In this document: piece after piece, positions 7,499-25,114 of the stretch
Position numbering within the stretch: position 1 is the first letter of the stretch
How the letters are laid out: each line of letters begins with the position of its first letter
Source of the DNA: a virus
Virus record (IMG/VR): IMGVR_UViG_3300044946_000220
Location: 38,035 to 102,034 of that record
Length of the DNA: 64,000 nucleotides
Reading direction: 5' to 3' (one strand)
Translations under genes and position numbers: made by a program
Notes under the pieces: model-generated
What the model was told of the DNA's origin: nothing
Seen by the model: the letters and a program-made list of their open reading frames with translations, nothing else
Database searches by the model: none

Positions 7499-8218
7499 AT
7501 GGCGAAAAAGAAGGATGACGGCAGCATTGTCGGCGGGTTTATCCGCGAAGGACACGGGAGCGATCGCGGGAAGCCGCACATCGAGGTGGTGGCGGACGAG
7601 CTTCCATGGCCTGTACCGGCCCAGGTGGCGGCTCCAGCCCGTCCGATCGAGCGGCTGCCAGATGGCAAGCTAGCCAGTAGCGAGGCCGCCAAGGAACTCG
7701 GTAGGCTGGGCGGCGAGGCCAAGGCCCGCAGGGTGCGCATGGTGGACGCCCTTGGGCTGTCTAAGCTCGCCGAGAGCGCCGCATTCCTACCTTATCGCAC
7801 AGCGGCCGAGGAGTTCTCAAGGCACCATCTGGAAGAGTTGGCCGAGATGTCCGGTGGTGTGGTTGGGGCTGGGCCAAGCTCCATGGTTGCCAGCGCGGCG
7901 ATCCAATTGGGAGCCTCGCGCTTCCTCTTCGACAAGGGCAGCGAGGACGGCGACCCAGACCTGTTCGCTAGTGCCTCGCGCCTGGCCGACTCGTCTAGGC
8001 AGAATCTGCTGGCCGCGTATGCCCTCGCCGTACGTGCCGCCGAGTTGCGAAACAAGAGCAAGTCGAAGACGGTTGACTTCGACGCCCTCACCCGTCAAGC
8101 GGTGGCTGAAACTGAGGCTCGCCGGGAGTCTGAAAAGAAGGCGCGCCAGAAGGCGATAGACGCTGCCGATTCGGAAGACGAGTCTACGCGCCTTCGCGTA
8201 AGCGCAGGTGCGACATGA
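7499..8218 (+). CDS. putative terminase small subunit
   Basis: Helical protein coupled (ATGA) to the large terminase; assignment mainly positional. Confidence 0.55.
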   Translation: MAKKKDDGSIVGGFIREGHGSDRGKPHIEVVADELPWPVPAQVAAPARPIERLPDGKLASSEAAKELGRLGGEAKARRVRMVDALGLSKLAESAAFLPYRTAAEEFSRHHLEELAEMSGGVVGAGPSSMVASAAIQLGASRFLFDKGSEDGDPDLFASASRLADSSRQNLLAAYALAVRAAELRNKSKSKTVDFDALTRQAVAETEARRESEKKARQKAIDAADSEDESTRLRVSAGAT

Positions 8219-9771: not shown

Positions 9772-10415
9772 AACTCGTCCTTATATCCGACACCCACGAG
9801 CAGCACCGCAAGCTCAAGACCCTTCCGTCCGCAGACGTCATCATCCACGCCGGAGACTTCACGTACCGTGGCGAACTGAAAAAGGTAGCCGACTTCGCCG
9901 ACTGGCTCTCGCACCAACCGGCCGCCGTGAAGATCGTCATCGCTGGCAACCATGACCTGAGCTTCGAGGACGTGCGCTACGAAGCCGCCCGTCACGAACT
10001 GCAGTCCCGCGGCATCGACTACCTCGAAGGCGGCTCACTCGAAACGGGTGGCCTCAAGTTTTACGGAGCGCCTTGGCAGCCTGAGTTCTGCCAGTGGGCG
10101 TTCAACGTTCCGCGCGACTCCGAAGCCATCGCAGCGAAGTGGGCCGCCATTCCAGACGACGTTGACGTGTTGATCACTCACGGGCCGCCCAGCGGCATCC
10201 TCGACTTGTGCAGCAACGGACATGTCGGGTGCTTGCGACTCCGCGAGCGCGTTGGCGAGTTGAAACAGCTGAAGCTTCACGTGTTCGGACACGTGCATGA
10301 GGGGGCTGGAATACGCATGCCAGCCAACGGACGCAGGTTTCCAATGTTCGTAAACGCTTCCCAGTTGGACGGACAGTACCGGCACGTCCATGAACCAATC
10401 GAAGTAGATCTGTAG
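9768..10415 (+). CDS. calcineurin-like metallophosphoesterase
   Basis: SDTH, HAGD, AGNHD, LITHGPP, FGHVHE. Confidence 0.95.
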   Translation: MKLVLISDTHEQHRKLKTLPSADVIIHAGDFTYRGELKKVADFADWLSHQPAAVKIVIAGNHDLSFEDVRYEAARHELQSRGIDYLEGGSLETGGLKFYGAPWQPEFCQWAFNVPRDSEAIAAKWAAIPDDVDVLITHGPPSGILDLCSNGHVGCLRLRERVGELKQLKLHVFGHVHEGAGIRMPANGRRFPMFVNASQLDGQYRHVHEPIEVDL

Positions 10416-10419
10416 GACC

Positions 10420-11262
10420 ATGAGCGGATCAGACAAGACAGCGTTAGGCGACCGCATGAAGGCATACGAAGACGCCTACCGCGTCTACCTGCCGAGGCGT
10501 GTGCCCATCCTTCTGCGCGTAGACGGCAAGGCTTTCCACACCCTCACGAAACATTGCGAGCGCCCGTGGTACGATCGCCTGTGTGCAGCCATGGACGCGG
10601 TGGCCCTTGCGTTGTGCGAAGAGATCCAAGGCGCACAGCTTGCCTACGTTCAGAGTGACGAGGTTTCCGTACTCATCCACGGCTACAGAACAATCACAAG
10701 CGAGCCTTGGCTGAACAATGGCCTTCAGAAGATTGTCAGCGTGTCGGCCAGCGTGGCTACGGCGGCGTTCAACGATGCGTACAGGTCGTCCGCCGTCAGG
10801 TGGCTTGTCCCTGCCGGCACAGATCTGGATGTGATGGACGGCAACATTGGTATCATTCGGTACGTGGGGCCGAACTGCGTGCCAGAGTTGGCGCCAACGA
10901 AGTCCGCACACTTCGACTCGCGCGCATTCATGATGCCGGAAGACGAGGTTGCCAACTACTTCCTATGGCGCCAGCGCGACGCTGAGCGCAACTCGATACA
11001 GATGCTGGCGCGGGCGCACTTTAGCCACACCGAATGCCACAAGAAGTCGTGCGTCGATCTGCAAGATATGCTGCACACGAAGGGTGTCAACTGGAACGAC
11101 TGTCCCACTGTGCACAAGCGCGGCAGGTGCGCCGTGCGCGCCGATTTTGAACGAGACGGCACCGTGCGCAGCGGATGGGTGATAGACAAGGAGATCCCGA
11201 TGTTCGGGCAGGATCGCGCGTACGTCGAACGCCACGTGAACGTTCACAAGGAGGCTGCGTGA
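10420..11262 (+). CDS. thg1: tRNA(His) guanylyltransferase Thg1-like protein (3'-5' polymerase)
   Basis: GDRMKAYE, RVDGKAFH, YVQSDEVS, FDSR, NYFLWRQRDAERNS. Confidence 0.95.
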   Translation: MSGSDKTALGDRMKAYEDAYRVYLPRRVPILLRVDGKAFHTLTKHCERPWYDRLCAAMDAVALALCEEIQGAQLAYVQSDEVSVLIHGYRTITSEPWLNNGLQKIVSVSASVATAAFNDAYRSSAVRWLVPAGTDLDVMDGNIGIIRYVGPNCVPELAPTKSAHFDSRAFMMPEDEVANYFLWRQRDAERNSIQMLARAHFSHTECHKKSCVDLQDMLHTKGVNWNDCPTVHKRGRCAVRADFERDGTVRSGWVIDKEIPMFGQDRAYVERHVNVHKEAA

Positions 11263-11516
11263 GCCTCGACATTGAGCCCGGCACACTTTCCGAGGACGAG
11301 TTCCAGACGCTCATCCGGCACCTAGACGCCTTCCCTGCCGCAGAAACGTGCCCCGTATGCTCTTTCACCGAATGGGACGTCCCCGCGATGAAGGAGCACC
11401 CCGTGTACGTGGAGGCTCGCGAAAAGCGTATGACTGGTACGCTGCTCGTGTCGCTAGTGTGCTCCACGTGTGCGTACGTTAGGCAGTTTGCGTGGAGGGG
11501 GGTTTGCCGTGAGTGA
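11259..11516 (+). CDS. small zinc-ribbon protein
   Basis: CPVC...CSTC; GTGA-coupled. Confidence 0.65.
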   Translation: MSLDIEPGTLSEDEFQTLIRHLDAFPAAETCPVCSFTEWDVPAMKEHPVYVEAREKRMTGTLLVSLVCSTCAYVRQFAWRGVCRE

Positions 11517-11880
11517 CGTCGTCTTTGTGTCCGTACCAATTCGCACGGTGTCCGAGGCCAACATTCGCGTTCACTGGGCTGTGCGGGCCAAACGCGTCAA
11601 GGCGCAGCGGCAGGCCGTAGCCATGACGCTGAGTGCGCGCCGCAAACATGTCCGCCAGCCTCCGTATACCGTGACGCTGTGCCGTGTTGCCCCCAGCAAG
11701 GGGCTTGACGGGGACAACCTATGCAGCTCACTCAAGGCGTCCAGGGATGCGGTAGCCGAAGTGCTGGGCATCGACGACGGGGACTCGCGCATCACATGGC
11801 GGTACCTGCAACGCCGAGGCAAACCGAAAGAGTACGCCGTGGAGATAACCGTCGAGAGCCAATCGAACCCTAGTACATGA
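11509..11880 (+). CDS. RusA-like Holliday junction resolvase
   Basis: SEAN...LDGDNLCSSLKASRDAVAEVLGIDDGD. Confidence 0.8.
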   Translation: MSDVVFVSVPIRTVSEANIRVHWAVRAKRVKAQRQAVAMTLSARRKHVRQPPYTVTLCRVAPSKGLDGDNLCSSLKASRDAVAEVLGIDDGDSRITWRYLQRRGKPKEYAVEITVESQSNPST

Positions 11881-12122
11881 GCCTTGACCAACTCATTCCG
11901 TGGCGAGTCAGTCCGCAGGTGCTTGCCGACTGGTGCGCCTACCAGATTCAGCACAACGGCAAGGCGGCGTCCTACTGCTCGGCGATACTCCGCATGATCG
12001 CGCACAAGAAGTGGCCGGTCGCCACGAAGGACGCGTACGGAACGGCGTGCGACTTGGGCAGCGAGTTGGGCGAAACGCTTGGGGAGACGGTGGGTGTTCC
12101 GATCGTATGGGACGAGAACTGA
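11877..12122 (+). CDS. hypothetical protein
   Basis: ATGA-coupled ORF. Confidence 0.6.
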   Translation: MSLDQLIPWRVSPQVLADWCAYQIQHNGKAASYCSAILRMIAHKKWPVATKDAYGTACDLGSELGETLGETVGVPIVWDEN

Positions 12123-12451
12123 TCGATGCGCTGGACAAGCTTCTCAAGCTGTACGACGACGCTTACGCGCGAGGTATCGACATTGCCATTGCAGAGGCGT
12201 GCGACGACGCAACGGGCTGGAAGATCCGGCAACTGTTTCGCGAGGAAGACGCGCGCTACGGCAAGTGCTGGCCGGAGATGCTTGGTAGTCCGGCGTGGCA
12301 GGTGGAGCTTTCGGCCGGACGGCTTGCGGTAATTCTACGACTGCGGAGACTGAAGAAGCGACTATCCAATGAGCAACGTAAACAAGCGAAAACGAGCAAC
12401 ACTCCCTGTGCTGACGGCGAAGCAAGCGGAGGAGCTGCTGCTGTACTTTGA
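12107..12451 (+). CDS. hypothetical protein
   Basis: Protein-like from MGRELIDALDK; overlaps next gene by ~80 nt. Confidence 0.5.
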   Translation: MGRELIDALDKLLKLYDDAYARGIDIAIAEACDDATGWKIRQLFREEDARYGKCWPEMLGSPAWQVELSAGRLAVILRLRRLKKRLSNEQRKQAKTSNTPCADGEASGGAAAVL

Positions 12452-12743
12452 CGGCAACCAGCCTTCGGAGCCAGGGGCCGAGTCAACGCACGGCGCTGTG
12501 GTGAAGTGGCTAGCGCGCGGGCAGTTGGAGGCTCCGGACATGCTGTCTTCGTCAGAAGACGAGATGCTTGAGTACCTGGATGCCAAGCGAGAGTGGGACA
12601 TGGTGGAGGCGAAGGTAGAGAAATGCTCAGACGCAACCCTAGGCGTTCTTGCAGCGTGGTTCGCGGCAAAAGAGGTGGATCGTCACCGAGTCGCAGACGA
12701 CGAGGTCTTGGCGGCGGCGTGCAAGGAGTACGCAGCAACATGA
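12369..12743 (+). CDS. hypothetical acidic helical protein
   Basis: ATGA-coupled to kinase. Confidence 0.65.
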   Translation: MSNVNKRKRATLPVLTAKQAEELLLYFDGNQPSEPGAESTHGAVVKWLARGQLEAPDMLSSSEDEMLEYLDAKREWDMVEAKVEKCSDATLGVLAAWFAAKEVDRHRVADDEVLAAACKEYAAT

Positions 12744-13195
12744 ACGTCATCGTCTTGAGTGGGTGCAGCGGGAGTGGGAAGTCCACATACGCCAAGAAGC
12801 TGCTGGAAGACGCCAACGGCCGCGCCACGTGCGTTAGTGCAGACCACTATTTTGAGCGTGGCGGGTACTATGATTTCAAGTCCGATGAGTTGCCACAGGC
12901 CCACGGCTACTGCTTCCGCCGGTTCATCAACGCCCTTCGCGACGGCAACGCCGGTGTGCTGGACACGATCATCATTGACAACACAAACCAGTCTGCGGCG
13001 AACATTTCGCCGTACTTCCTCGGCGCGCAAGCCTTCGGCTGGACGTCGGAGTTGGTGACGGTGCTGTGCGACGTTGAGGTGGCCGCCGCGCGCAACAAGC
13101 ACGGGGTTCCGCCGGAGAAGGTGAGACAGCAGGCCGCGCGAATTGCAAAGCGGCAGGTCCCGAAGACGTGGAAGCAAAGGACGGTGGAACTGTGA
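12740..13195 (+). CDS. P-loop kinase, polynucleotide-kinase-like (AAA_33 type)
   Basis: GCSGSGKSTYA, SADHYF, IIIDNTN, RNKHGVP. Confidence 0.9.
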   Translation: MNVIVLSGCSGSGKSTYAKKLLEDANGRATCVSADHYFERGGYYDFKSDELPQAHGYCFRRFINALRDGNAGVLDTIIIDNTNQSAANISPYFLGAQAFGWTSELVTVLCDVEVAAARNKHGVPPEKVRQQAARIAKRQVPKTWKQRTVEL

Positions 13196-14289
13196 CATTG
13201 GACATGAGTGTGTTTGGTCGAGAGCTTGGCCGTATTCTGAACGTGCCGAAGATGGCGGCCGAGGGGCATCCGCTGCTTGAGCGCGTGATGCGGAATGAAC
13301 AGTTTTACGGTAACACCCATGTGTCGCCATGCACCGACGGTCTGCCGTTGGGCAGAAGCGTCACATACACGAGCGTCCACGCGCACAAGCAGCCTCAGAT
13401 CAACTGGCTGACGCATCGCCTGAAGGACTACGAGCGCGTGGTGCTGGACTCATATCCGGAGCGCGCAATTGCGGACTGCAAGTTCGCCGTGAGATGCCTT
13501 GGCGATCGGCTGTCGCGGGCCCTGTACACGACCACCAAGTCCAAGGGTTTTGACGGAACGTTCACGACTGACAACGTGGTGGATCCGCTGAGCGACTGGG
13601 TGCCTCCGTATGCGCCGGGGAAAGGCGACTGTTGGCGCGGTGTAGATCGTACGACAGATCCCGCGCGTCTCGCTGGGCAACGACTGAACGCATCCGGCGC
13701 TGTGGCGTCAGAGGCCCTCATCCTAGCCGACCAGCTTGGCGTGCGCGAAGGGTCCGATGAAGACGAACCGTTGTACGTGAACCCGATCACGCACTGTCGC
13801 ATCCCCAAGTCGGACCGACGCGCCTCCATGGTGCTGGACTATTCGTGCCCAGAGGACACGATCTGGCGGCTGCCGGACGGATGTCTGGAGATTCTGAGCG
13901 CTTGGCACGCGCCGCAACTGCTGGACTGGGATAGTAGGCCCATTGTGCGGCGAGATGACGGCAAGATGGAGGTGCGACTGGGGTTCTACGGAAACACCGT
14001 TATGAAGAATGTGGGTAAGGTGGTACGCATTATGGGTTTGAGCCTACCGGAGGTGAAGCCCAGTGCGACGTGGGTCATCGGCAGCGGCAGACCGTTCAGC
14101 GAGTTGCCCACGCTGAAGGAGCCGGCGTCCGACGTGTGCGAATCCACAATTCTGTCCTACGGGAAGATGCCTGCGCCAGTGGTGACGCCGCCCGCAATCG
14201 CCGAGAAGGCGTGCCCCAATCCTACGTGCGGGAAGATGAATGACGTGGGCACGACTAAGTGCTGGTTCTGTACTGGGAGCTTGACGTGA
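13192..14289 (+). CDS. diverged paralogue of the major capsid protein with C-terminal zinc ribbon
   Basis: Colinear similarity to 29111..30370 across N- and C-terminal blocks; ends CPNPTC...CWFC. Confidence 0.8.
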   Translation: MTLDMSVFGRELGRILNVPKMAAEGHPLLERVMRNEQFYGNTHVSPCTDGLPLGRSVTYTSVHAHKQPQINWLTHRLKDYERVVLDSYPERAIADCKFAVRCLGDRLSRALYTTTKSKGFDGTFTTDNVVDPLSDWVPPYAPGKGDCWRGVDRTTDPARLAGQRLNASGAVASEALILADQLGVREGSDEDEPLYVNPITHCRIPKSDRRASMVLDYSCPEDTIWRLPDGCLEILSAWHAPQLLDWDSRPIVRRDDGKMEVRLGFYGNTVMKNVGKVVRIMGLSLPEVKPSATWVIGSGRPFSELPTLKEPASDVCESTILSYGKMPAPVVTPPAIAEKACPNPTCGKMNDVGTTKCWFCTGSLT

Positions 14290-14453
14290 AGCAACCCAAG
14301 AAACTGCGCCGCAAGGCATTGGCTCGCGCACGCCGCAAGCTGGCCGCACTCCAGTCGCGTAACGCGAGGCCGCGCACGATCAAGCGACAGAAGGATCGTT
14401 GGGCGAAGCGAACGGCGGCACAATTCATGTACGACAGGCTGCAAGATGGCTGA
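14286..14453 (+). CDS. small basic protein
   Basis: Lys/Arg-rich ORF filling the gap between two genes. Confidence 0.55.
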   Translation: MKQPKKLRRKALARARRKLAALQSRNARPRTIKRQKDRWAKRTAAQFMYDRLQDG

Positions 14454-15078
14454 TCTGCCCAAAGCGATCATCTGCGACCTCGACGGCAGTCTCGCCTTGA
14501 TTGGGCCGAGAAACCCTTACGACGCCGCCAAGTGCGAGGTAGATACGCTGAACTGGCCTGTAGCCGCTACCGTGCACGCCCTTCGCAACGCAGGCTACCG
14601 TGTCATATTCATGTCTGGCCGCAAGGAGTGCGATCGAAAGCCAACCGTTGACTGGATCCGCAAGAACATGCTCAGCGGCGTGTGCGGTTGGGTTGAATGC
14701 GTAGACTACGAGCTTTTCATGCGCGAAACGGACGATAACCGTCCTGACAATGTGGTGAAAGTCGAGCTTTTTGAGAAGTACGTGAAGCCTAGGTACGACG
14801 TGCTTCTGACGTTAGACGATCGCAAAAAAGTGGTCCGCGCGTGGAGGGACGCACTGGGGCTCGTATGCCTGCAGGTCAACGACGGTCCGCTAGAGAAAAC
14901 GGACTGCATTCATTGCGGAGGAAGCGGCACCAGTAAGGCCCTTGTAGGCGATGAGCAAGAAGCCGCGTTGGCGCTATGCGATCTGGTGGGTAAGCCGTCC
15001 TGGGAGCCGCACCTGCGTGAAGCCGAGTATGCAATCAAGTCGATTATCAAGGCTGTGAGCAAAGGGAGAGCGAGATGA
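14446..15078 (+). CDS. HAD phosphatase similar to the 3'-phosphatase domain of T4 polynucleotide kinase
   Basis: CDLDGSLA, FMSGR, MRETDDNRPDNVVK, LDDRKKVV...GLVCLQV. Confidence 0.92.
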   Translation: MADLPKAIICDLDGSLALIGPRNPYDAAKCEVDTLNWPVAATVHALRNAGYRVIFMSGRKECDRKPTVDWIRKNMLSGVCGWVECVDYELFMRETDDNRPDNVVKVELFEKYVKPRYDVLLTLDDRKKVVRAWRDALGLVCLQVNDGPLEKTDCIHCGGSGTSKALVGDEQEAALALCDLVGKPSWEPHLREAEYAIKSIIKAVSKGRAR

Positions 15079-15794
15079 TTTATGCACTGTGTTTGTGTCT
15101 TACGGCGGCCCTGATCGTCAGTCGAGTGCTTGCGCGACTCGGGCGCCTTAGACTAGCGGATGAAAACGAACTGCAGGCAAGCCGGTTACAGGTGGCCAAC
15201 AATGTTATCAACGCCGAGCGAATGCTACACAAAGAGTTGCGCGCCGAGCGAGACGGTTTGCGCGCCGAGCTTGCCGCAAAGGCCAATACGGTTGCGGTCG
15301 CCCCAAAGTGGGAGACGTGGCACAAGAGCGGCAATTGGCCGTCGTTTCGCGAGCGAGAAGAAGCTGGAGATCCGTGGGTGTCCACCCTAAATCAGTTGCG
15401 AAAAGAGCTGAGCGCCCTACAAAACCACGAGCGAACTATCTCCGATTTGCGAACGAAACAAAACGCTCTCGTGACGGAGATGCACTACGTGTCTGGTGCC
15501 ATGTTGAAGTCAGAGAAGGTGGCCGAGGAGTTGCGCTTCAGGTTGAAGCGCAGGGATGTGCGAATCAGGGTGCTGGAGGCCGAGGCTGTGCTTTACGGGC
15601 GCAAGCCGCCTGTGGCAAGGTTCGCCACACCCAAGGGCTGGGATGCGTGGGACGACAAGAAGCAAAATAAGTGGCTGCTTGACAACATGAAGCCGCTACT
15701 TGCGGCTCATCCGCCCTATCCGCTCGGCCGCCCACCGGAAGACGACAAGTCTCAATCGAAACCCAGTACAAGGAAGGCAAAGGCCAAGAAATGA
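15075..15794 (+). CDS. membrane-anchored coiled-coil protein
   Basis: Hydrophobic N-terminus then heptad-like helices. Confidence 0.65.
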   Translation: MIYALCLCLTAALIVSRVLARLGRLRLADENELQASRLQVANNVINAERMLHKELRAERDGLRAELAAKANTVAVAPKWETWHKSGNWPSFREREEAGDPWVSTLNQLRKELSALQNHERTISDLRTKQNALVTEMHYVSGAMLKSEKVAEELRFRLKRRDVRIRVLEAEAVLYGRKPPVARFATPKGWDAWDDKKQNKWLLDNMKPLLAAHPPYPLGRPPEDDKSQSKPSTRKAKAKK

Positions 15795-16099
15795 CGATCA
15801 ATAACAACAGCAACACCAATCGCAACGTCGACGTGAACAACGACACCCTCGCTTCGGCGATGCGGACGATTATCAACGATCGGCTGACGATTGATACGCA
15901 TACGCCGACCAACAACAACGTGAATGCCACCCAGAACGACGACTTCGAGCCCACGCACGTCATTGTCAGCGGCTTCGGCGTCACGATCAGCGAGTTTCTG
16001 GATCCGGACGAGTACACCAATAACGCGATCTACGGCGAGACGCTGGTGCGCATGGTGGCTGCGTACAACTCGGCGGACAAGGTGCTGACGGGAACGTGA
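15791..16099 (+). CDS. hypothetical Asn/Thr-rich protein
   Basis: Coupled on both sides. Confidence 0.65.
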   Translation: MTINNNSNTNRNVDVNNDTLASAMRTIINDRLTIDTHTPTNNNVNATQNDDFEPTHVIVSGFGVTISEFLDPDEYTNNAIYGETLVRMVAAYNSADKVLTGT

Positions 16100-16386
16100 T
16101 CGGGGACGGCGCCATCTTCGCCGAGGAGCTTGGTAGGCACTTGAAAATGTCTACCAAGCGCGCGCGAAGGCTGATGTGGGAAGTGTTTGCCAGATACGGC
16201 GAGACGGTTGTTTCCGCCGTGCCTGGCAAGCGCGGGTTCAGGCCTTGGACCACCTGGGCGGCGTGGGAAAGCAGGTTGCCTTCCCTTAGGTCTGGCGGAA
16301 AGGACATTTTTGACAGAGTTTCTACACTGGAGACTGAGATCGCTAGGCTAAAGGCCCACTTAGGGCCACAAGGTGGAGGAATCTAA
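16096..16386 (+). CDS. hypothetical, possibly DNA-binding protein
   Basis: GTGA-coupled; helix-turn-helix-like N-terminus (weak). Confidence 0.55.
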   Translation: MIGDGAIFAEELGRHLKMSTKRARRLMWEVFARYGETVVSAVPGKRGFRPWTTWAAWESRLPSLRSGGKDIFDRVSTLETEIARLKAHLGPQGGGI

Positions 16387-16734
16387 CCTTATAGGTAGGA
16401 GCATGTCGCAACAGGAACTGACTGGATCTCGCGCTTCTGCGCCTCCCAGCCTGTGCACGAAATGTGCGCCGCCCCAAACGGGACATCGGCGCGTCTTGCT
16501 CAGCTTTTCGACTAGTGCCAGCCGCGTTACGCTTGAGCCGGGCATCGACCCTCGCTCTGACGCTTTGTCCAACGCGGCGCGCACTAACCGGCCCGGGAAT
16601 GGGGGAACACCCCAGATGGGCCATTTTGCGGTCGCTACCCGTCTCGCTAGGTGCACGCGCTGGTCGCGTCCACTGGTACCCTGCGTGCGGTCGGCCGTTG
16701 CCGGTTATGTTCGGGTAGCTCCCGACTCCGGCGT

Positions 16735-16796
16735 GCAGTCGGCGGCGGTAAAGGGCCGCGCGACGTCCCCCAGTTCGACTCTGGGCGTCTGCACCG
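16735..16796 (+). ncRNA. tRNA-like element lacking an anticodon arm
   Basis: Acceptor-like stem GCAGTCG/CGTCTGC (one mismatch), hairpin GCGGC-GGTAAAGG-GCCGC, canonical T arm CCCAG-TTCGACT-CTGGG, then ACCG. Confidence 0.5.
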
Positions 16797-16857
16797 GGCG
16801 GCCACGGCCAGGACGATGGGCGCTTGCCTGTGGCGGGCAGCGCAGCGGTTGCGGGCG

Positions 16858-17112
16858 ATGAGGCGGCACTACGTCTTTTCGGCGATTGTGGCCGTCCTGG
16901 CCATCGCCTTCACTGTTTTCTCGTGTGGCGGCATCCTTGCGACACCATACTGCCTTGCGGGGCACCACTACTGCGGCGGAATCGCCGAAGGCGCCGCTGT
17001 TTGCTGCCCCAACACTGCGGTGTGCGGGACCGATGTAAATCGGTGTCCACGGGGCGAATGTTGTCCCCTGGCCGACGCCCCTCCCGGCACCAAGCCGGAC
17101 GGCGACTTTTGA
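16858..17112 (+). CDS. cysteine-rich lipoprotein
   Basis: Signal peptide ending VFSC, followed by eight more Cys. Confidence 0.75.
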   Translation: MRRHYVFSAIVAVLAIAFTVFSCGGILATPYCLAGHHYCGGIAEGAAVCCPNTAVCGTDVNRCPRGECCPLADAPPGTKPDGDF

Positions 17113-17267
17113 TCACGCAGGCCGTTCCCGTGACCCTCCTCCACGCGTGGGACGGCCGAACTCTTCGATGCGAGGTAGCACAATTGGCAGTGCTTTCGTC
17201 TGTTACACGAAATTATACAGGTCCGAATCCTGTCTTCGCAGCCGACATCGCCAATCGATACAAGTAG
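17109..17267 (+). CDS. small hypothetical protein
   Basis: TTGA overlap, fills gap. Confidence 0.45.
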   Translation: MITQAVPVTLLHAWDGRTLRCEVAQLAVLSSVTRNYTGPNPVFAADIANRYK

Positions 17268-17268
17268 T

Positions 17269-17724
17269 ATGCCTACCCGCAATCAGCCGATCTACCAGCA
17301 ACTCGTTGACGCCGTCATTGAGCGAGACGCGTCCTGCGGCGTGCAGTCGCTGCCTAGCGCGCGCGATCTGGCGATCAAAAGCTGCCTTGCGTCTACGGAC
17401 TTCTCGCTGTACTTTGCCTCTTCGGCTGCGGCCAAGTTTGGGGGCGACTACCGAGCTTCGTGCGACGGCCTCAACGTAACTGGCCTTCCTGGCCTTCCTG
17501 TTTCGCGCCACGGCCTTGAGCTGACCGCCCTTGTGCTGGCCGACGTGCGCGCACGCGAGGGCAACGGCTCGCCCGACGGTGGCCACCCTACGTTCAACAT
17601 CGACGACTACCTGACTGATCAACCGCACCTGGTGCCTGATCGTTCTAACTGGCGCAACCCAGACCCAGGCGGCGGCGCTGGCGCGGCACGCCCAGTTGAG
17701 TACGAGTACCGGAAGGCGGCATAG
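17269..17724 (+). CDS. hypothetical protein
   Basis: ORF in operon. Confidence 0.65.
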   Translation: MPTRNQPIYQQLVDAVIERDASCGVQSLPSARDLAIKSCLASTDFSLYFASSAAAKFGGDYRASCDGLNVTGLPGLPVSRHGLELTALVLADVRAREGNGSPDGGHPTFNIDDYLTDQPHLVPDRSNWRNPDPGGGAGAARPVEYEYRKAA

Positions 17725-18359
17725 TGGTTACGGCCGCCAAGCTACCGCATGGGTTCCGGTGCCACAGTTCCCTCGTGCACGGCCTAGAGCTTGTCTTCGG
17801 CGGCCTATACGAAGTGGACATGGAGCCGCACCCCGGCACCGTGCTGGACATCGGCGGCAACGCTGGCGCATTCACGATGTGGGCCCTTGGCCGCTGGCCG
17901 GGCGCGAGGATCACAACGTATGAGCCATCGGCAGCCACGCTGAGGAACCTGTACGAAAACGTAAAACCGGAGACGCGCAACGGCTTAGTCACAATCGTTG
18001 GCAAGGCCGTCACATCATTGCCGGGGCCGTACGCGTTTCTTCACGACGGACGCCAGAACACCGGTGAACGGTCTCTGTATGACATGGGCGACCAGCTTGT
18101 CACTGGCGAAAGTGTTGCCGTGGAGCACCCCGAGGACTTGCCGCAAGCGGACTTCCTCAAGCTGGATTGCGAAGGCGCTGAGCTGGACATACTGACCCAC
18201 TACCCGCTGCTGGACAAGTGCCGCGCCGTCGCGTTGGAGTGGCACATCCCCGAGCAGTTGCCGGACATCATCACGACGCTCGCGAAGGCTGGACTGCGCA
18301 TCTGCGCGCAAGACCGCCAAGAGCGTATGTTGAAATTCAAGCACCACACCGAACTGTGA
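17724..18359 (+). CDS. FkbM-family SAM-dependent methyltransferase
   Basis: VLDIGGNAGAF, YEP, FLKLDCEGAE. Confidence 0.93.
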   Translation: MVTAAKLPHGFRCHSSLVHGLELVFGGLYEVDMEPHPGTVLDIGGNAGAFTMWALGRWPGARITTYEPSAATLRNLYENVKPETRNGLVTIVGKAVTSLPGPYAFLHDGRQNTGERSLYDMGDQLVTGESVAVEHPEDLPQADFLKLDCEGAELDILTHYPLLDKCRAVALEWHIPEQLPDIITTLAKAGLRICAQDRQERMLKFKHHTEL

Positions 18360-18610
18360 TTGTGACAAAGCTTATCTCCGTCACGAACGCGCAGTGGACG
18401 CTGTTGCAGCGTATTGTTCGCGGGATCCGGCTTCCGCTGAAACGGTATAGCCACGTGACGAGCGCGCAGGTCCGCGCCCTTTCGCGCAAGCACTGCATTG
18501 CCCATGTCGGCCATGCCCACTGGGTTATCACCCGCTTCGGCCGCGAGCTAATCGCTGGCAAGGGCAAGGCCCTGTATTCGGATGCGGAGCACGGCGGCAA
18601 GTTCTTCTAG
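18356..18610 (+). CDS. small winged-helix-like protein
   Basis: VTNAQWTLL...WVITRFGRELI. Confidence 0.5.
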   Translation: MIVTKLISVTNAQWTLLQRIVRGIRLPLKRYSHVTSAQVRALSRKHCIAHVGHAHWVITRFGRELIAGKGKALYSDAEHGGKFF

Positions 18611-19021
18611 ATGGCGATCACTTCGACAATTGCGGTTACGGTGGACGTAAACGGTGATGGACAGGTCAGTGGGCCTGAATCCATTGGTACCGTTGCGAAT
18701 CCGGCCAGTCCCGCATCACTGCAGCAATATCAGCTTGTGCTCGGCAACATCGCCCTGGTGCTTCCACTTGGCTTTGCGGTGAACTACCTGATGATCGACG
18801 CGAACACCACGACGTCCGGACAGACCCTTACAATCAAGGGCAACTCAGGAGATGTTGGCGTGACGCTGTCCAGCTCGATGCCGAGCCTGATCCCGGTGTC
18901 CAATGTAAACCCGTTCGTGACGTTTTTCAACCCAGACTTCGACTTCCCAGAGCCAACGCCGGTTGGCCAGGTTTGGCTTGAGGCGACCGGGCCCGGGCTT
19001 CTTGGCGTTGGCTGGTTCTGA
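18611..19021 (+). CDS. putative beta-rich virion protein (paralogue of next gene)
   Basis: KGNSGDVGVTL shared with next ORF; structural-protein-like composition. Confidence 0.6.
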   Translation: MAITSTIAVTVDVNGDGQVSGPESIGTVANPASPASLQQYQLVLGNIALVLPLGFAVNYLMIDANTTTSGQTLTIKGNSGDVGVTLSSSMPSLIPVSNVNPFVTFFNPDFDFPEPTPVGQVWLEATGPGLLGVGWF

Positions 19022-19425
19022 TGTCTCGTTACGCGAATTTGCAAATCAACATCCAGTGCGTTGGCGGCACTGGGCGCCGCGACACGATTTGCCGCACGCC
19101 GCTGGCGTTGGTTTCGCAGACGCTCACCACGAACCCGTCAGCGCTCAGCAGCAACACGCCAAGTGAGCTTTCGTACATTCAATTTCAGGCCGGCTACAAC
19201 ACCGTCGCGCTGCCGAACTCGTTCACGCAGAACTTCCCCATCCTCTACGTCGTCATTGCGCCGCCCACTACGTCCACCAACGGCAAACTGCTGATGGGCA
19301 ACGCCGCTGACGTGGGCGTTAGCCTTGTGCCCAATCTTCCGATGGTGCTGGCCGTTGGGCCACAGGTGACGAGCTTTGGTATTCAAAGCCAATTCAGCGA
19401 GAATTGTGACTGGTGGGTGATCTAA
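19021..19425 (+). CDS. putative beta-rich virion protein (paralogue of previous gene)
   Basis: MGNAADVGVSL. Confidence 0.6.
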   Translation: MSRYANLQINIQCVGGTGRRDTICRTPLALVSQTLTTNPSALSSNTPSELSYIQFQAGYNTVALPNSFTQNFPILYVVIAPPTTSTNGKLLMGNAADVGVSLVPNLPMVLAVGPQVTSFGIQSQFSENCDWWVI

Positions 19426-19643
19426 TGGAAGCCGATGCGCCGTGCCTTAGCTGCATGTCTCTGACTGAGAAGATCAAGAGGCTGGAGCACAACCTGAAGC
19501 GCACGCAGGCCGACTTGGCGCACCAGAAGCACCTCAACAGCGGGCTTCGCGAAGAGCTTACCGAGAATCTGCCCGAGCCGGACACGGTTGCCGAGCCTGT
19601 GGATCCCACGCGCCGCTTCGTTCCGCGTCCGCCACTTTTCTAG
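19425..19643 (+). CDS. small coiled-coil protein
   Basis: TAATG-coupled; CLSC then heptads. Confidence 0.6.
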   Translation: MEADAPCLSCMSLTEKIKRLEHNLKRTQADLAHQKHLNSGLREELTENLPEPDTVAEPVDPTRRFVPRPPLF

Positions 19644-19648
19644 ACACT

Positions 19649-20074
19649 TTGACTCAACTCGACACACTTGAAGGCGTGCTGAAGATCCGCCCCGGGCAAC
19701 CTGGCGATCGAAGCTATGTGCTTAGGAGCTGGATCTCCAGCTTCAACAAGAGCCCACTGGCCAGAGCCCTGGGCGAGAACTACTACAAGGTGTACTCGCC
19801 CGTTGTTGAGCGCCAGTACGCGCGCAGCCAGATCCGCATTGCTTGCATGTCGGACGAGCCTGGGGCAATCGTTGGCTTCGCCGTGCTGGAGCCAGAGCGT
19901 TCCACGGTACATTTCGTGTGCGTTCGCGAGAAGTGGAGACGCAAAGGCGTTGCCTCACTTCTGCTTGCTAACGAGCTAAAGCAAACCGGCATTCAGTACA
20001 CGCACTCCGCGCCACCGTACATTCGCGCGCCTCAGGTGTGGTCGTACATGCCACTATCAGGAGCATTCAGTTGA
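19649..20074 (+). CDS. GNAT-family acetyltransferase
   Basis: IVGFAV...VHFVCVREKWRRKGVASLLL. Confidence 0.88.
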   Translation: MTQLDTLEGVLKIRPGQPGDRSYVLRSWISSFNKSPLARALGENYYKVYSPVVERQYARSQIRIACMSDEPGAIVGFAVLEPERSTVHFVCVREKWRRKGVASLLLANELKQTGIQYTHSAPPYIRAPQVWSYMPLSGAFS

Positions 20075-20087
20075 CAGGAGCAACAGT

Positions 20088-22568
20088 TTGAACTGCAGCG
20101 AAGTCTACCCGAACCTTTGGATCGGCGCCCATCCGCAAACGCTTGGAGGCAGCGTCAGCGAGATCAAGGAGGCCGGCTTTACGCTGCACCTCGATTGTCG
20201 CGGAGAATGTCCGCCAGTAGCCACGGCGCGCACTGAGATTCAGACGGCGTATCTGCCGCTTTGGGACGACGGCTCAACGCCGCTTACGCAGGACGTGATT
20301 GCGCGCGTCCGCCAGGCTGGGAAAAACATAGCCGCATGCGTGCGGGCTGGGCGCAAGACGCTGATCACCTGCATGGGCGGCTTCAACCGAAGTGCGCTTG
20401 TGGCGGCGTTCGCCTTGCACGAGCTTACCGGGAAGTCTGGCGCTGAGGTGACGGAGATCATCCGCGAAGCGCGCGGGCTCCCTACGCCGGAACTTGTCAA
20501 GGCCGCTGGCATCACCCACGATCCGCCGCGCCGTGCACTGAACAATCCACAATTCGTGGCCGCAATCTTGGCGCTAGAGACGAAGACTTACGACGCCGAC
20601 TGCCTCATCTACGACGCGGTTGGTGGGGCGTACACCGCGGCTGACGCCGACGGAAGCTTCGCGCTGGGCGGTAGCGAGCTTGAGGTGACGCAGATTGCGC
20701 GTGCCCTCGCCGCTAAGGGGCACAAGGTTACGGTTGCCACCGGCGCCACTGAGGCGAAGGAAATCGAAGGCGTCCGGTACGTCCCGCTCAAGCAAGCCGT
20801 GGGACAGCGCGTCAAGACTCTGTACGTCCAGCGCCACAGCCCCATGCCACAAGTGGATGCGGATCACACGATCATCCGCTCCACGGACATGAATGAGGCC
20901 GGCTATCGCACCCATGACGCGATTCTGGCAAGCGGCAACGCCGAGCTTCTGTGTGTGAGCAAGTGGCAGGCCGGCCAATTCCAGCATGCCATCCGCCGTG
21001 CCATCGTACCGTCCCCGCTTGGCGCCATGCCGAAGGTCGACAAGGTGCCCGGGCGCTTCGTATTCGCGTCCTCGGCGGCCAAGGGTCTGGAGCCCACGCT
21101 GGGCGTCTGGATGCACATGAAGGCCGCCTACGGCCAGGAGCTGGCGTCCGCAAAGCTGCTTGTCACGGCCCCCAGCTACAAGTTTGGCAGAGCCCCCACG
21201 CTAACGCAGTCCATGAAGGATGCGGGCGTTGAGTACGTGCCGGCCAAGTCGATGGCGCACTACCGCGAACTGATCGCCAGCGCCCGGGGTGTTTTCTACG
21301 CCTGCTGCTACCAGGAAACGGCGTGCATGATTGCCGCCATGTGCGAGCGAAGTCACACACGCTTCCACTTCTGGCCCATGACGGGCCTCGGCGGTGTGCC
21401 GGAGATGCTGACGAACAGTCGCCTCACCGCCGACAGTCAGGACAAGTTTGAGTCCGACTTTATGGCCGCCTGGCGTGAGCCGGACAGAGCCGAGTGGTAT
21501 GCCGCCGGCAAGCTGAAGGATCTCAGCGTGGACGCCGTGCTTCCGATCTGGGAGCACGCCCTCCATTTGGCGGATCACTCCGCGCACGAAGATAAACTGC
21601 CGCTTTACATTGCCGCAGACTCTATGGCGTCACGCCCCGGGATGCCACAACCGTTTATCGCCACGCCGGCCTACGGCGGCATGCTGACGATGCCGTACAC
21701 GACTTCGCTTGTGTCGCTCATGTGCGGCATGCAGAAGCTGGGGCTAGATCCAACCCTCCACCTTCTCGGCAACGAGTCGCTGATCACGCGCGCCCGCAAC
21801 AACTGCGTGGCAGACTTCCTCGCCTCCAGGTGCACGCACCTGTTTTTCATTGACTCTGACATTGGCTTCACGGCACAGCACGCCGTTGACATGATGACGT
21901 CCGGATTGGACGTTGTCTTCGGTGCGTACCCCAAGAAGTCCATCGAGTGGAACAACGTGCTTCGCGCGGCGCAGGAAGGCATCGCGAAGACGCCCGAAGA
22001 CTTGGCACAGTACATGGCCGGGTTCGCGCTGAACTTCACCGAGGACTCCGTCAAGACCGGCGAGTTCAAGGTGTTGGAGCGTGGCGGCCTGGCGTTCATG
22101 CCCGTCAAGGAAGCCTCCACCGGCTTCTGCTGCATTTCGCGCGCGGCGATTGAGCGCATGATTGAGGCGTATGGCAGCGAGCTTGAGTACGTCAGCGATT
22201 CCAACCTGGGATACGGCGAGAAGCGCTACGCCCTGTTTGATTGCCCCATCTGCCCAGAAGGCGACAGCGACGCGCCACTGATTGCGTTGCGCAAGGCAGC
22301 AAAGGCATACGCGATCAGTAGAGATGACGTCACCTCCAACGCCGTGCTGGATGCGGCAAGTGCGTTTGCGACGGCGACAGCTGCTGGCGCATCTCGCTAC
22401 TTATCAGAGGATTACGGATTCTCGCGTCGGTGGGCTAGCCTTGGCGGCGAAGTGTATGTCTACGTTGGGGCGGCGCTAACGCACACCGGTACGCACACCT
22501 TCTACGGCGACTTCCGAAAGATGTTCACCGCAAGTGTGGATGACGCCTCAACTTACACAGCTCCTTAG
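20088..22568 (+). CDS. fusion: dual-specificity phosphatase + GT-B glycosyltransferase + GT-A glycosyltransferase
   Basis: CMGGFNRS (CX5R); GGSELEV...ALAAKGHKVTV and YQETACM; ESLITRARN, FFIDSDIGF (DxD), YLSEDYGFS. Confidence 0.88.
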   Translation: MNCSEVYPNLWIGAHPQTLGGSVSEIKEAGFTLHLDCRGECPPVATARTEIQTAYLPLWDDGSTPLTQDVIARVRQAGKNIAACVRAGRKTLITCMGGFNRSALVAAFALHELTGKSGAEVTEIIREARGLPTPELVKAAGITHDPPRRALNNPQFVAAILALETKTYDADCLIYDAVGGAYTAADADGSFALGGSELEVTQIARALAAKGHKVTVATGATEAKEIEGVRYVPLKQAVGQRVKTLYVQRHSPMPQVDADHTIIRSTDMNEAGYRTHDAILASGNAELLCVSKWQAGQFQHAIRRAIVPSPLGAMPKVDKVPGRFVFASSAAKGLEPTLGVWMHMKAAYGQELASAKLLVTAPSYKFGRAPTLTQSMKDAGVEYVPAKSMAHYRELIASARGVFYACCYQETACMIAAMCERSHTRFHFWPMTGLGGVPEMLTNSRLTADSQDKFESDFMAAWREPDRAEWYAAGKLKDLSVDAVLPIWEHALHLADHSAHEDKLPLYIAADSMASRPGMPQPFIATPAYGGMLTMPYTTSLVSLMCGMQKLGLDPTLHLLGNESLITRARNNCVADFLASRCTHLFFIDSDIGFTAQHAVDMMTSGLDVVFGAYPKKSIEWNNVLRAAQEGIAKTPEDLAQYMAGFALNFTEDSVKTGEFKVLERGGLAFMPVKEASTGFCCISRAAIERMIEAYGSELEYVSDSNLGYGEKRYALFDCPICPEGDSDAPLIALRKAAKAYAISRDDVTSNAVLDAASAFATATAAGASRYLSEDYGFSRRWASLGGEVYVYVGAALTHTGTHTFYGDFRKMFTASVDDASTYTAP

Positions 22569-22576
22569 GATTCAAT

Positions 22577-22825
22577 ATGCCCGCAGTCAAACCCAAAAAA
22601 GACGTTGACTATACCGACACAGGCCTCCCGCCGCAGACTGACGATAAGGGCAAGCGCAAGCTGAGCCCCAGCGTGCAGAAACAGGTGAAGGCGGCCACCG
22701 GTGAACTGCCGAATTCGGTCGGTCAGCCCAAGGTTACTGGCGACGTCGAAGATGAGGCGTTCAAGAAGGCATACGAGCGCATTGAGCAGCTGAAGAAAGA
22801 CAAGTCTGGCGAGCAGTATTTCTGA
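22577..22825 (+). CDS. small hydrophilic protein
   Basis: AGGA RBS; ends GEQYF. Confidence 0.65.
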   Translation: MPAVKPKKDVDYTDTGLPPQTDDKGKRKLSPSVQKQVKAATGELPNSVGQPKVTGDVEDEAFKKAYERIEQLKKDKSGEQYF

Positions 22826-22843
22826 TCAGACTAACGCGTCCAG

Positions 22844-23101
22844 TTGGGCGTAAAGAAAGCGATTGATAACATGGGAGCACCCAGCGTTGCGAAGCCGTCC
22901 GGTCAGCCGGACTTCAAAGAACCCAAGGTCAAGGTTGGACCGCAGTCCCCTGGCACGAAGGTGCCCAAGAGTGGCACTAATGATTTTGAGGCTGGCGGTG
23001 GCAAGAAGCAAGTCGGCTCGGCTGGCGGAGACGCCAGTGACGCGACTGATGCGTACAAGCACGAGCGTCAGGCGCAGGAAACAGGGGACTCATATTTCTG
23101 A
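22844..23101 (+). CDS. small hydrophilic protein
   Basis: Ends GDSYF; TGATG-coupled to next gene. Confidence 0.6.
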   Translation: MGVKKAIDNMGAPSVAKPSGQPDFKEPKVKVGPQSPGTKVPKSGTNDFEAGGGKKQVGSAGGDASDATDAYKHERQAQETGDSYF

Positions 23102-23262
23102 TGCCGCTCAAGAATGGCTCTGATCCGGATACGGTCAGAAAGAACATCAAAGAGATGCGGTCTGCCGGCCACCCTCTTGACCAAAGCATTGCGGCGGCGC
23201 TGCGACAGGCGCGCGAAGATCACAACAAAGACAAGAAGAAAAAGAAGAAGGACGACAAGTGA
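23101..23262 (+). CDS. conserved small basic phage protein (MPLKNGSDPDTVRKNIKEMRSAGHPLDQSIAAALRQAR...)
   Basis: Hand-translated 53 aa; resembles the MPLKKG..NI.E...G.P..QA.AIAL type seen near head genes. Confidence 0.75.
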   Translation: MPLKNGSDPDTVRKNIKEMRSAGHPLDQSIAAALRQAREDHNKDKKKKKKDDK

Positions 23263-23591
23263 CCACAGGCGAACGGCACGTTTTCGACGACATTCAGGCC
23301 ATCAGCGACGTTACCATCGCAGAGATGCTTGACCCCGAAAAGAACACCAAGGGCGGGCTCATTCTGCCAGACACGGTGGCGAAGTCTCCGATCTGGTGGA
23401 AGGTGATCAGCGTTGGACCCAAGGTAACAGACGTGAAGGTGGGGCAGCGAATCCTGTTCTCCGCCAACGTGCCTCGCATTGAGCACGAAGGGCGCACCAT
23501 CATCTCGCTCAAGCCGGATCACATCATCGGCACGCTTCCTCCGCCCAAAGAGGCGGTTGTAGAGCGCGTGTTCGATCCTACTCGATACTAA
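23259..23591 (+). CDS. groES: GroES-like co-chaperonin
   Basis: TKGGLILPDT mobile loop, VISVGP, VKVGQRILF. Confidence 0.88.
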   Translation: MTTGERHVFDDIQAISDVTIAEMLDPEKNTKGGLILPDTVAKSPIWWKVISVGPKVTDVKVGQRILFSANVPRIEHEGRTIISLKPDHIIGTLPPPKEAVVERVFDPTRY

Positions 23592-23642
23592 TACAGGCGA
23601 ACGAATCCAGGCCAGGCGCCGCTTTGCACAGGTGATTGATAA

Positions 23643-24032
23643 GTGTCAGACCACAAAGAATCTCGACTTACCCGCATCAGCTTCCCGGCTCAAGACGCGG
23701 TTTCCCTTTTCTTCCAGCCGACGTCTTCGGCAGCCACGGGATGGGATCCGGTTTACGAGGCGGACGCGTGTGGATCTCCAGGCAAGAAGGCATGGGAGAT
23801 GTGGCTCTTTGAGAGCAGTCCCGGCGTGGGATACGTAAAGGTATATCACAAGGATAGGCCCACTGGTGCCGTCAAGGTGCCGCTGTCGTCGATCAAGTCC
23901 TATGAGGAACGTTGGGCTGAAGAGCCATACAAGTCCCTTTTGCTTCGCGAGGCCGCTGCCGCCAAGGCCGGCAAAGAGGCCAGGGAAGCGGCGGCGCTGA
24001 CTGAGGCGGACAAGGCTACTGCCAAGAAGTAA
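23643..24032 (+). CDS. hypothetical protein
   Basis: AGGTGA RBS, GTG start. Confidence 0.6.
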   Translation: MSDHKESRLTRISFPAQDAVSLFFQPTSSAATGWDPVYEADACGSPGKKAWEMWLFESSPGVGYVKVYHKDRPTGAVKVPLSSIKSYEERWAEEPYKSLLLREAAAAKAGKEAREAAALTEADKATAKK

Positions 24033-24041
24033 CGGTGTGAC

Positions 24042-24656
24042 GTGGGGCATCTTGTCGAAATAAGGCACGGTCATACGGCTTTGAACGCCGGTGGTGAGAG
24101 TGCCGAAAAAATACGTGGGTGGGCAGATGTGCCACTTGACGTAGAAGGCCGTAACGAAGCGACCAGACTTGCTCACCGTTTTGCCAAAGACAAGGTCGTA
24201 GAGATCTACTGCAGTCCTCTTGATCGTGCACAAGAAACCGCACGCGCAATCGCCAAGTCAACCGGCGCTCCGCTGCACATAAACTTCGCGCTTATGCCGT
24301 GGCATCTGGGCTACATGACTGGCGAGCCCGTAAAGAGCGTCTTACCGATCATGAACTACCACGTGGAGCATGAGGATGAACCCGTGCGCGGAGGAGAGCC
24401 GTTCTCCGTGTACCGAAAGCGCTTCCTCGGCTTCTTGAAGCGCAAAGCGGAAGAGTCGAGTCAACTGTACGACGGCAACTTCATCCTGCTTGTCACGCAT
24501 TCTCGAGGGCTTCAGATCACTAAGTCGTGGCTGAAGGCCGGATCGCCGGATGACCTGTCAATATCGGTCCCCAGGATGCTCGATTACAAAGACGAGACCA
24601 AAACTGGCGGCGAGCTGAGTCTATACGTCAAGTCTGGCAGGGCTGAGTCGGCATGA
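24042..24656 (+). CDS. histidine phosphatase (phosphoglycerate mutase-like)
   Basis: IRHGHT, SPLDRAQETA, GGEP, LLVTHS. Confidence 0.92.
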   Translation: MGHLVEIRHGHTALNAGGESAEKIRGWADVPLDVEGRNEATRLAHRFAKDKVVEIYCSPLDRAQETARAIAKSTGAPLHINFALMPWHLGYMTGEPVKSVLPIMNYHVEHEDEPVRGGEPFSVYRKRFLGFLKRKAEESSQLYDGNFILLVTHSRGLQITKSWLKAGSPDDLSISVPRMLDYKDETKTGGELSLYVKSGRAESA

Positions 24657-24931
24657 ATGTGAACGACTTGGTAGCGTTAGCAGATCTCTCCGGGGTCATG
24701 CGAAGCAACGGCATTCGCCGCGCTTGCTTTGCGACAGATGGCAGCGTTTCTGAGTGTGAGCTGGATCCGAAGTATGAGCCGCCGCCAGAGCCCGAGCGGG
24801 CGTTGACCCCTGAAGAGCAGGCGGTCGCCAAGGTGGAGCGAATGAAAGCCGCCGAGCGACAGAAACGAATTGACGACGCCCTGATGTTTGCTGCCGCAGA
24901 GGGGTTCCCAAGGGAGCTTATTGAGTCATAA
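24653..24931 (+). CDS. hypothetical protein upstream of portal
   Basis: ATGA-coupled. Confidence 0.65.
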   Translation: MNVNDLVALADLSGVMRSNGIRRACFATDGSVSECELDPKYEPPPEPERALTPEEQAVAKVERMKAAERQKRIDDALMFAAAEGFPRELIES

Positions 24932-25114
24932 TATGAGCCATAGAGTGGCCCGCAAAACTGCACACCCGGCATAGCGTCAGTAGTCGAATACACTCCTTCT
25001 AACGACTCCAGGGATCTTCGCTGGTGGGGCCGCGATGTCAAGGACGCCGAACGGTACACTAAGCTGATCGGGGCCGTCTCGCGGATCCGACAGAATCAGG
25101 TCGGCCGCAAGGAG

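Follow-up and report, generated by a model that had tools for sequence, protein, structure and literature searches.

A phage genome recovered from soil carries, besides the gene for its major capsid protein (MCP), a second and shorter gene of the capsid type. The window analysed here is a stretch of 64,000 nt, bases 38035-102034 of a 102,034-bp IMG/VR virus record (IMGVR_UViG_3300044946_000220), and the gene in question, which we call mini-MCP, encodes a protein of 365 aa (P0001). This protein is an end-to-end homologue of the MCP, far beyond chance; its core is modelled as a minimal HK97 fold with no surface insertion, and it continues into a proline-rich tether and a terminal zinc ribbon. 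Together with a few relatives from metagenomes it forms a family that, judged by its sequences, is rare, of single origin and fast-evolving, and that is related to but distinct from the MCPs of the SU10/PF17236 type. The family is apparently undescribed: a literature search found no paper on mini-MCP-type genes in phage genomes. Tentatively, we read mini-MCP as a minor subunit of the phage head, and we weigh this reading against several others below.

A shortened homologue of the major capsid protein

The gene, the parts of its product and the MCP gene used as comparator are located in the window as follows.

13192..14289, + strand: mini-MCP gene, product P0001, 365 aa, from GTG 13192; stop TGA 14287-14289
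13192..14046, + strand: minimal HK97-fold core, residues 1-285 (N-terminal helices, E-loop, spine helix, P and A domains), from the AlphaFold2 model, Foldseek and VIA-align
14047..14211, + strand: Pro-rich tether, residues 286-340, predicted disordered from low values of the predicted local distance difference test (pLDDT)
14212..14271, + strand: 4-Cys zinc ribbon, Cys341/346/357/360, from the sequence motif
29111..30370, + strand: major capsid protein gene, product P0002, 419 aa, from relatives, model and gene order

The original prediction for this stretch, made by eye, was of a hidden second capsid gene, and it proposed pairwise and hidden Markov model (HMM) alignment to the MCP and structure prediction as checks. 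All of these bear it out: mini-MCP is a real open reading frame (ORF) of coding-type GC content, homologous to the MCP, with a confident HK97-fold model. GC at the three codon positions is 0.60/0.49/0.74, like that of the adjacent genes, and alternative starts exist at GTG 13168 and ATG 13204. The comparator P0002 is the true MCP of the phage, because it has 748 relatives, with a precomputed PF17236 (SU10_MCP) assignment on about a third of those listed, because its AlphaFold2 model is confident (pLDDT 90.6) and has the SU10 capsid as its best Foldseek match (E 1.1e-10), and because its gene comes after the portal gene and an Ala/Glu-rich, scaffold-like ORF. The mini-MCP gene, by comparison with such a shell-building gene, neither belongs to the portal-scaffold-MCP block nor occurs in every relative.

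Homology between the two proteins is evident at every level of alignment. BLASTP aligns P0001 with P0002 at E 5e-14 (28% identity across 169 residues), and hhalign matches the short family to the MCP family with probability 100 and E 3.9e-47, placing P0001 3-283 on MCP 8-419. A profile of the short family searched against the MCP of a relative recovers the N-terminal part (E 1.7e-11) and the C-terminal part (E 4.5e-39) separately, skipping the middle. In the joint alignment, where identity is 23.7% over 278 columns, every motif pair that had been matched by eye falls in register, and three segments correspond: P0001 3-119 to MCP 5-138, P0001 129-209 to MCP 238-317, and P0001 210-282 to MCP 346-419. 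Conserved family motifs are retained in P0001 (W-x-P, G-V-D-R, R-L-A-G, D-x-x-C-P and E-x-R), as are most MCP-conserved positions (W136, P138, R153, L160, G162, D216, P220, R262). The E-loop is nearly full-length, in contrast to most mini-MCPs.

Two parts of the MCP have no counterpart in P0001: residues 139-237 (99 residues), which form a beta-rich module in the MCP model, and residues 318-345 (28 residues), a hairpin after the second A-domain helix. The central beta-rich insertion had been correctly noted as absent. Placed by topology only, the hairpin probably corresponds to the annular (A-) loop, which lies at the centre of the capsomer. In the SU10 MCP, which builds prolate heads, it is mainly the annular loop of the axial domain that distinguishes the subunits of hexamers from those of pentamers (PMC9509320).

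The AlphaFold2 model of P0001, built from a 65-row alignment, has a pLDDT of 83 overall, with values above 90 for most of residues 1-285 and low values in the last 80 residues. A Foldseek search with it retrieved the HK97 prohead (E 1.3e-10), the SU10 capsid (E 1e-9) and encapsulins, as expected from the proposal of an HK97 fold with missing parts. VIA-align gave Z scores of 15-19 with 206-247 residues aligned: 18.8 for the MCP of cyanophage A-1(L), 17.4 for encapsulins, 15.8 for HK97 and 15.1 for SU10. The ESM Atlas provided no usable match.

Family libraries were silent on both proteins. Pfam hmmscan at E up to 1 assigned no family, PF17236 included, to P0001, P0002 or ten members of the short family; PHROGs held no match for P0001 or P0002; and a PDB sequence search returned nothing for either, the only signal being that of the A1 profile to 7f38 at E 0.048. 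Searches of GenBank phages with tblastn found no match for P0001 and none for the MCP itself, which points to an uncultured soil lineage.

Beyond the core, the low-confidence Pro-rich linker and the four-Cys tail are both present as first described. The block-mean pLDDT of the tether is 44-55, with stretches below 50 from residue 315, and a HMMER search found no relatives for it. The ribbon follows this Pro-rich stretch with the spacing C341-x4-C346-x10-C357-x2-C360, the four cysteines lying in two knuckles, and its motif occurs as a single copy in the 102-kb genome. We take the spacing to be that of the RanBP2-type zinc-ribbon consensus. The other mini-MCPs have no zinc ribbon.

A family of short capsid-type proteins and its variation

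A full HMMER pass (phmmer) over 1.84 billion representatives returned 271 hits for P0001, the majority being MCPs some 400 aa long that match in three separate stretches. Among the best hits are complete proteins of 245-346 aa, which can be aligned with P0001 from one end to the other. These mini-MCP relatives are intact ORFs, 24-35% identical to P0001 and encoded on Logan or JGI contigs of 1.2-69.6 kb, and their integrity at such low identity argues for long-term selection on the fold. A search with the A1 profile contributed one further member (P0271), and a k-mer protein search with P0001 returned only the query itself. All sequence relatives listed for P0001 are phage-type MCPs or MCP-derived proteins, apart from the second-best phmmer hit, P0123, which we discarded as an artefact: it is a 962-aa repeat protein matching the tail only. 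No relative was found in viral contigs scanned with P0124, P0128, P0125, P0151, P0200, P0272 and the neighbouring phosphatase, in metagenome contigs queried with A2 and A6, or in genome contigs queried with A5 and P0200. The closest relative, P0125, lies on the JGI contig of 69.6 kb and is 47% identical to P0001 over 113 residues; it is called as 178 aa with an unaligned N-terminus, and may be frameshifted or broken in its phage.

In an unrooted maximum-likelihood tree of 70 proteins, the 11 mini-MCPs (245-365 aa) occupy one side of a branch supported at 97 by the Shimodaira-Hasegawa-like approximate likelihood ratio test (SH-aLRT), apart from all 55 sampled full-length MCPs. The phage's own MCP lies deep among the full-length proteins, beside an 84%-identical one, so that P0001 did not arise by recent duplication of its neighbour. 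The description of mini-MCP as a paralogue, in the sense of a copy of the phage's own MCP, therefore has to be given up in favour of membership in an old clade distinct from every full-length MCP sampled. The same tree does not sustain the description of mini-MCP as stripped of its insertion: loss of the beta-rich module and its never having been gained are indistinguishable on an unrooted tree.

A second kind of cut-down capsid protein came to light among the relatives. This separate set, P0155, P0194/P0272, P0176/P0277 and P0200 (179-261 aa), holds only the C-terminal half of this MCP type. The half-MCP kin of P0155, namely P0194/P0272 and P0176/P0277, show 36-38% identity. P0200 has a Cys-rich N-terminus and is found on 19 contigs of up to 50 kb, and P0272 on 8 contigs of up to 60 kb. 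In P0155 (261 aa), the half-MCP is followed by a helical linker and by a terminal ribbon like that of P0001, with the same Cys arrangement and 12/26 residues identical (46%; pairwise E 6e-5). One type of zinc ribbon is thus found on two different kinds of MCP derivative. Pfam zinc-ribbon models recognise these tails below threshold only: DUF7577 at E 0.04 for P0001, and DUF7577 at 0.014, DZR at 0.059 and Zn_Ribbon_1 at 0.071 for P0155.

Identical fragments of the phage are held in three further soil metagenomes, and a fourth holds a relative about 90-93% identical; none of the sequencing runs listed as containing such sequences was of RNA. Low-depth contigs of this relative allowed a limited view of selection, restricted to the covered parts and to the differences listed. 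In the covered parts of mini-MCP there are no indels, and the listed differences comprise 12 synonymous and 11 non-synonymous codons; within codons 82-123 the balance is 9 synonymous to 3 non-synonymous. No neutral decay is therefore seen, in keeping with the functional gene first proposed: the family consists of intact ORFs, and changes in the N-terminal half of the related strain are mostly synonymous. Read with caution, the strain differences speak against neutral decay and give a hint of a variable patch further along the protein, and no more. In one contig of the related strain the match ends just upstream of 14313 and is followed by 71 unlike letters, so that the final part of the ribbon, together with the stop codon and the start of the intergenic sequence (14236-14312), differs there.

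The accessory island between terL and portal

The array of head genes contains an accessory island, and it is there that the mini-MCP gene is found, 15.9 kb upstream of the MCP gene and in the same orientation as terL, portal and MCP. Its surroundings are the following.

8215-9771: terL (phrog_2, E 2.6e-18)
9772..25114, + strand: accessory island of 15.3 kb with the mini-MCP gene, between terL and portal
12740..13195, + strand: P-loop kinase gene, polynucleotide-kinase-like (Pfam AAA_33, E 2.3e-13; phrog_2071, E 1.1e-21; kinase, or N-terminal, half of phrog_505, E 1.3e-10)
14446..15078, + strand: PNKP-type HAD phosphatase gene (Pfam HAD_PNKP, E 1.1e-43; phosphatase half of phrog_505, E 7.4e-44)
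25115-26959: portal (Pfam SPP1_portal and SU10_portal; 38% identity to the portal of a relative)

Relatives L007 and L006 have their terL, portal, scaffold and MCP genes in one uninterrupted block, in this order. The location of mini-MCP outside the head module, as originally described, holds insofar as the gene is away from the portal-scaffold-MCP block, but not with respect to the whole array, since the island is wedged between terL and portal. Its gene content comprises a metallophosphoesterase, a Thg1-like protein, the kinase, mini-MCP, the PNKP phosphatase, a methyltransferase and a phosphatase-glycosyltransferase fusion, the Thg1-like and metallophosphoesterase genes lying upstream of mini-MCP.

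Coupling of mini-MCP to the kinase gene, also part of the original prediction, is visible in the overlap of its GTG start at 13192 with the kinase stop as GTGA. Such 4-nt start/stop overlaps (ATGA or GTGA) occur at five junctions in succession (12740, 13192, 15075, 15791 and 16096), and indicate a tightly packed, co-directional gene run around mini-MCP. The 156 nt from the mini-MCP stop to the phosphatase gene are the sole gap in this run, and no convincing promoter or terminator was found around the mini-MCP gene. We considered that a homing-endonuclease-type insertion might have split a fused pnkp gene, and set this aside: there is no nuclease domain, and kinases and phosphatases of this kind also occur as separate families (phrog_2071, phrog_415). 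The phosphatase itself extends for about 60 residues past its HAD domain (residues 148-210; window 14887-15078), a stretch that has C-x2-C at its start and no family match.

The whole record shows a direct terminal repeat of exact identity over 33 bp only (G000 1-33 and 102002-102034), which looks like the assembly overlap of a circular or permuted genome rather than a physical repeat.

Possible roles and known systems

The identity, fold, family and genomic setting of mini-MCP are as described above; its function we infer. The reading we tentatively prefer, as possible, is that of a minor co-assembling capsomer or vertex subunit. With a complete, assembly-competent fold retained, mini-MCP would probably still form capsomer-type contacts and would be built into the head in small numbers beside MCP hexamers. 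Its most plausible place would be that of a dedicated pentamer or vertex subunit, where it could influence shell curvature or size in this 102-kb phage; its zinc ribbon, on the tether, would come out close to the centre of the capsomer. SaPIbov5 Ccm, T4 gp24 and the penton protein of mycobacteriophage Jabs serve as precedents. What leads us to this reading is the conservation of the entire fold, the place of the gene in the head-gene array, and a weak complex prediction with the MCP. Homology to the MCP is full-length in P0001, including the N-arm and E-loop, and does not cover just a binding epitope. The predicted complex of the MCP with residues 1-285 of P0001 scored 0.32 against 0.00 for the best control, a level at which a pass is wrong in more cases than it is right, except where the guess was already a likely one. 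For calibration, the mark was reached by 58/80 solved complexes and by 2/110 mismatched pairs, of which only 7/80 and both mismatches lay at 0.60 or below. At least 89% of contacts agree between runs, and the partner pLDDT is at least 72; the score may reflect likeness to, or memory of, solved HK97 shells.

A number of observations weigh against a place in the head. The gene for T4 gp24 adjoins the MCP gene of its phage, whereas mini-MCP is 15.9 kb off, between a kinase and a phosphatase. As far as we know, virion surfaces do not usually display a Cys4 zinc ribbon on a long disordered tether; and the presence of a similar ribbon on P0155, a protein unable to build a shell, suggests that whatever task the two proteins share may not depend on forming one. 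The family is also a rare one, accounting for 11 of the 150 hits listed (out of 271), and tree branches are about 1.0-1.8 for most mini-MCPs, compared with 0.1-1.0 for most MCPs. In the related strain, codons 237-270 (window 13900-14001), which may be a variable surface patch, differ by 3 synonymous against 8 non-synonymous codons, including W238G, W246C and P250F. Finally, a second copy is missing from five related records with this MCP type, one of them complete (55 kb), so that the MCP is able to close shells by itself, and SU10 uses a single protein for hexamers and pentamers (PMC9509320).

Several of these features would suit the main rival, a soluble capsid mimic, which we regard as a rather unlikely but credible explanation. 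Such a protein would never enter heads and would bind whatever recognises unassembled MCP, be it an immune sensor of the host, for which it would be a decoy or sponge, or an assembly factor of the phage or host; its zinc ribbon would be a second contact, or a block on sensor oligomerisation. The rare, patchy and accessory distribution of the gene, its fast evolution and the local non-synonymous excess in codons 237-270 are in favour of this explanation, as are the cytoplasm-type Cys4 ribbon on its floppy tether and the existence of half-MCPs unable to form shells, one of them with a similar ribbon. So is the island itself, with its RNA end-repair type genes (Thg1-like, kinase, phosphatase, metallophosphoesterase): in T4, genes of this type counter anticodon-nuclease defence. 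Moreover, several defence families are reported to sense MCPs, among them Avs7 and Dsr1 (10.64898/2026.01.04.697583) and also type I Thoeris, as cited in a further study (10.64898/2026.06.04.730250). More broadly, it is conceivable, if doubtful, that phages keep cut-down capsid genes, both full-fold mini-MCPs and half-MCPs and some of them with a ribbon, as soluble look-alikes against sensors such as Avs7, Dsr1 or the CapRel type. Conservation of the entire fold, including N-arm and E-loop, nevertheless goes beyond the needs of an epitope mimic, and a look-alike of the trigger might itself activate the sensor. No defence-related domain or partner was identified in mini-MCP, and a literature search turned up no published MCP-like decoy.

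Use of the protein as a weapon against competing phages seems unlikely to us. Mini-MCP would then be a dominant-negative or geometry-shifting subunit that spoils the heads of related co-infecting phages or prophages, the phage's own MCP being insensitive. Ccm of the satellite SaPIbov5 sets a precedent: this capsid homologue, 24% identical to the capsid protein of the helper phage, fills pentamers, turns the prolate head into an isometric one and suppresses the helper (PMC8569155). Also in favour are the lack of any specific relationship between P0001 and the MCP of the same phage, and the accessory, fast-evolving nature of the gene; but nothing indicates resistance of the own MCP, with which the weak predicted contact was in fact made, the carrier is a full phage rather than a satellite, and the zinc ribbon is left with no role. 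Still less probable, in our view, is an encapsulin-like shell, a small compartment or capsomer platform that would organise the adjacent RNA-repair enzymes or RNA substrates, with ribbons binding nucleic acid. Size and fold do match, the best case being the Dendrosporobacter encapsulin 9i8e (Z 17.4, root mean square deviation 3.9, 239 residues aligned from residue 3, including the N-terminal helices), with several other encapsulins at Z 15-17, and the C-terminal extension of the phosphatase, about 60 residues past the HAD domain, would also fit. The mini-MCP gene lies directly beside enzyme genes, as shell genes do in encapsulin operons (10.1101/2021.03.18.436031). In contrast, P0001 hits no encapsulin Pfam family (e.g. 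PF04454) at E up to 1 and groups in sequence with phage MCPs, no cargo-targeting peptide is recognisable, and the ribbon is absent from other mini-MCPs. We know of no phage-encoded encapsulin. The notion that mini-MCP is a capsid-gene duplicate or fragment in decay, with no function, is largely refuted and very hard to maintain: the long branches of the tree, and P0125 with its 178 called residues and unaligned N-terminus, which could reflect frameshifts, speak for it, against an intact run of 365 codons with coding-type composition, eleven intact family members of common architecture, the MCP core motifs kept in P0001, and a diverged strain in which indels are absent and synonymous changes predominate in the N-terminal half.

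Extra capsid homologues are known to matter in a few cases only: T4 gp24, the penton protein of phage Jabs and the satellite weapon Ccm. The present finding defines a rare, old and still-selected family of minimal HK97-fold proteins from one MCP lineage. Should mini-MCP be a vertex or geometry subunit, the phage would be applying a Ccm-like trick to its own head; if it is instead a soluble mimic, it would be the first decoy derived from a capsid protein and a new anti-defence class, in a counter-defence island with RNA-repair genes, just when sensing of MCPs is being reported for many immune systems. In either case mini-MCP is a compact and easily expressed protein.

Among known proteins, one of the nearest is the phage's own SU10/PF17236-related MCP, which has solved relatives in SU10 (7Z45-7Z48) and cyanophage A-1(L) (7F38): the fold is the same and homology runs from end to end, but mini-MCP has neither the 99-residue insertion nor the 28-residue hairpin, bears a C-terminal extension of about 80 residues and belongs to a separate clade. 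Encapsulins likewise consist of a minimal HK97 fold of about 280 residues with no insertion domain, and the mini-MCP gene stands directly beside enzyme genes; the difference is that mini-MCP is phage-encoded, is a phage-MCP relative in sequence with no membership in their sequence families, and has no recognised cargo-targeting peptide. T4 gp24, a core gene of its lineage, is a second HK97-fold protein located at the pentameric vertices. Jabs, a mycobacteriophage, is reported to have a T=9 head in which hexons and pentons are made of different proteins (10.64898/2026.07.24.740622). Like these two, mini-MCP is a phage-encoded second HK97-fold protein that has diverged from the MCP, the known ones filling pentameric vertices; unlike them, it is encoded 15.9 kb from the MCP by an accessory gene that relatives lack, is much more strongly reduced, and ends in a ribbon tail. 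The likeness to Ccm is that both are additional HK97-fold homologues which share about 24% identity with the shell protein, are smaller than it and are encoded away from its gene, and that the target MCP type builds prolate heads. Ccm, however, is satellite-borne and used against a helper, has a cleaved N-terminal delta (scaffold) domain and has no zinc ribbon, whereas mini-MCP is part of the phage's own genome and carries, with no delta domain, a C-terminal tether and zinc ribbon.

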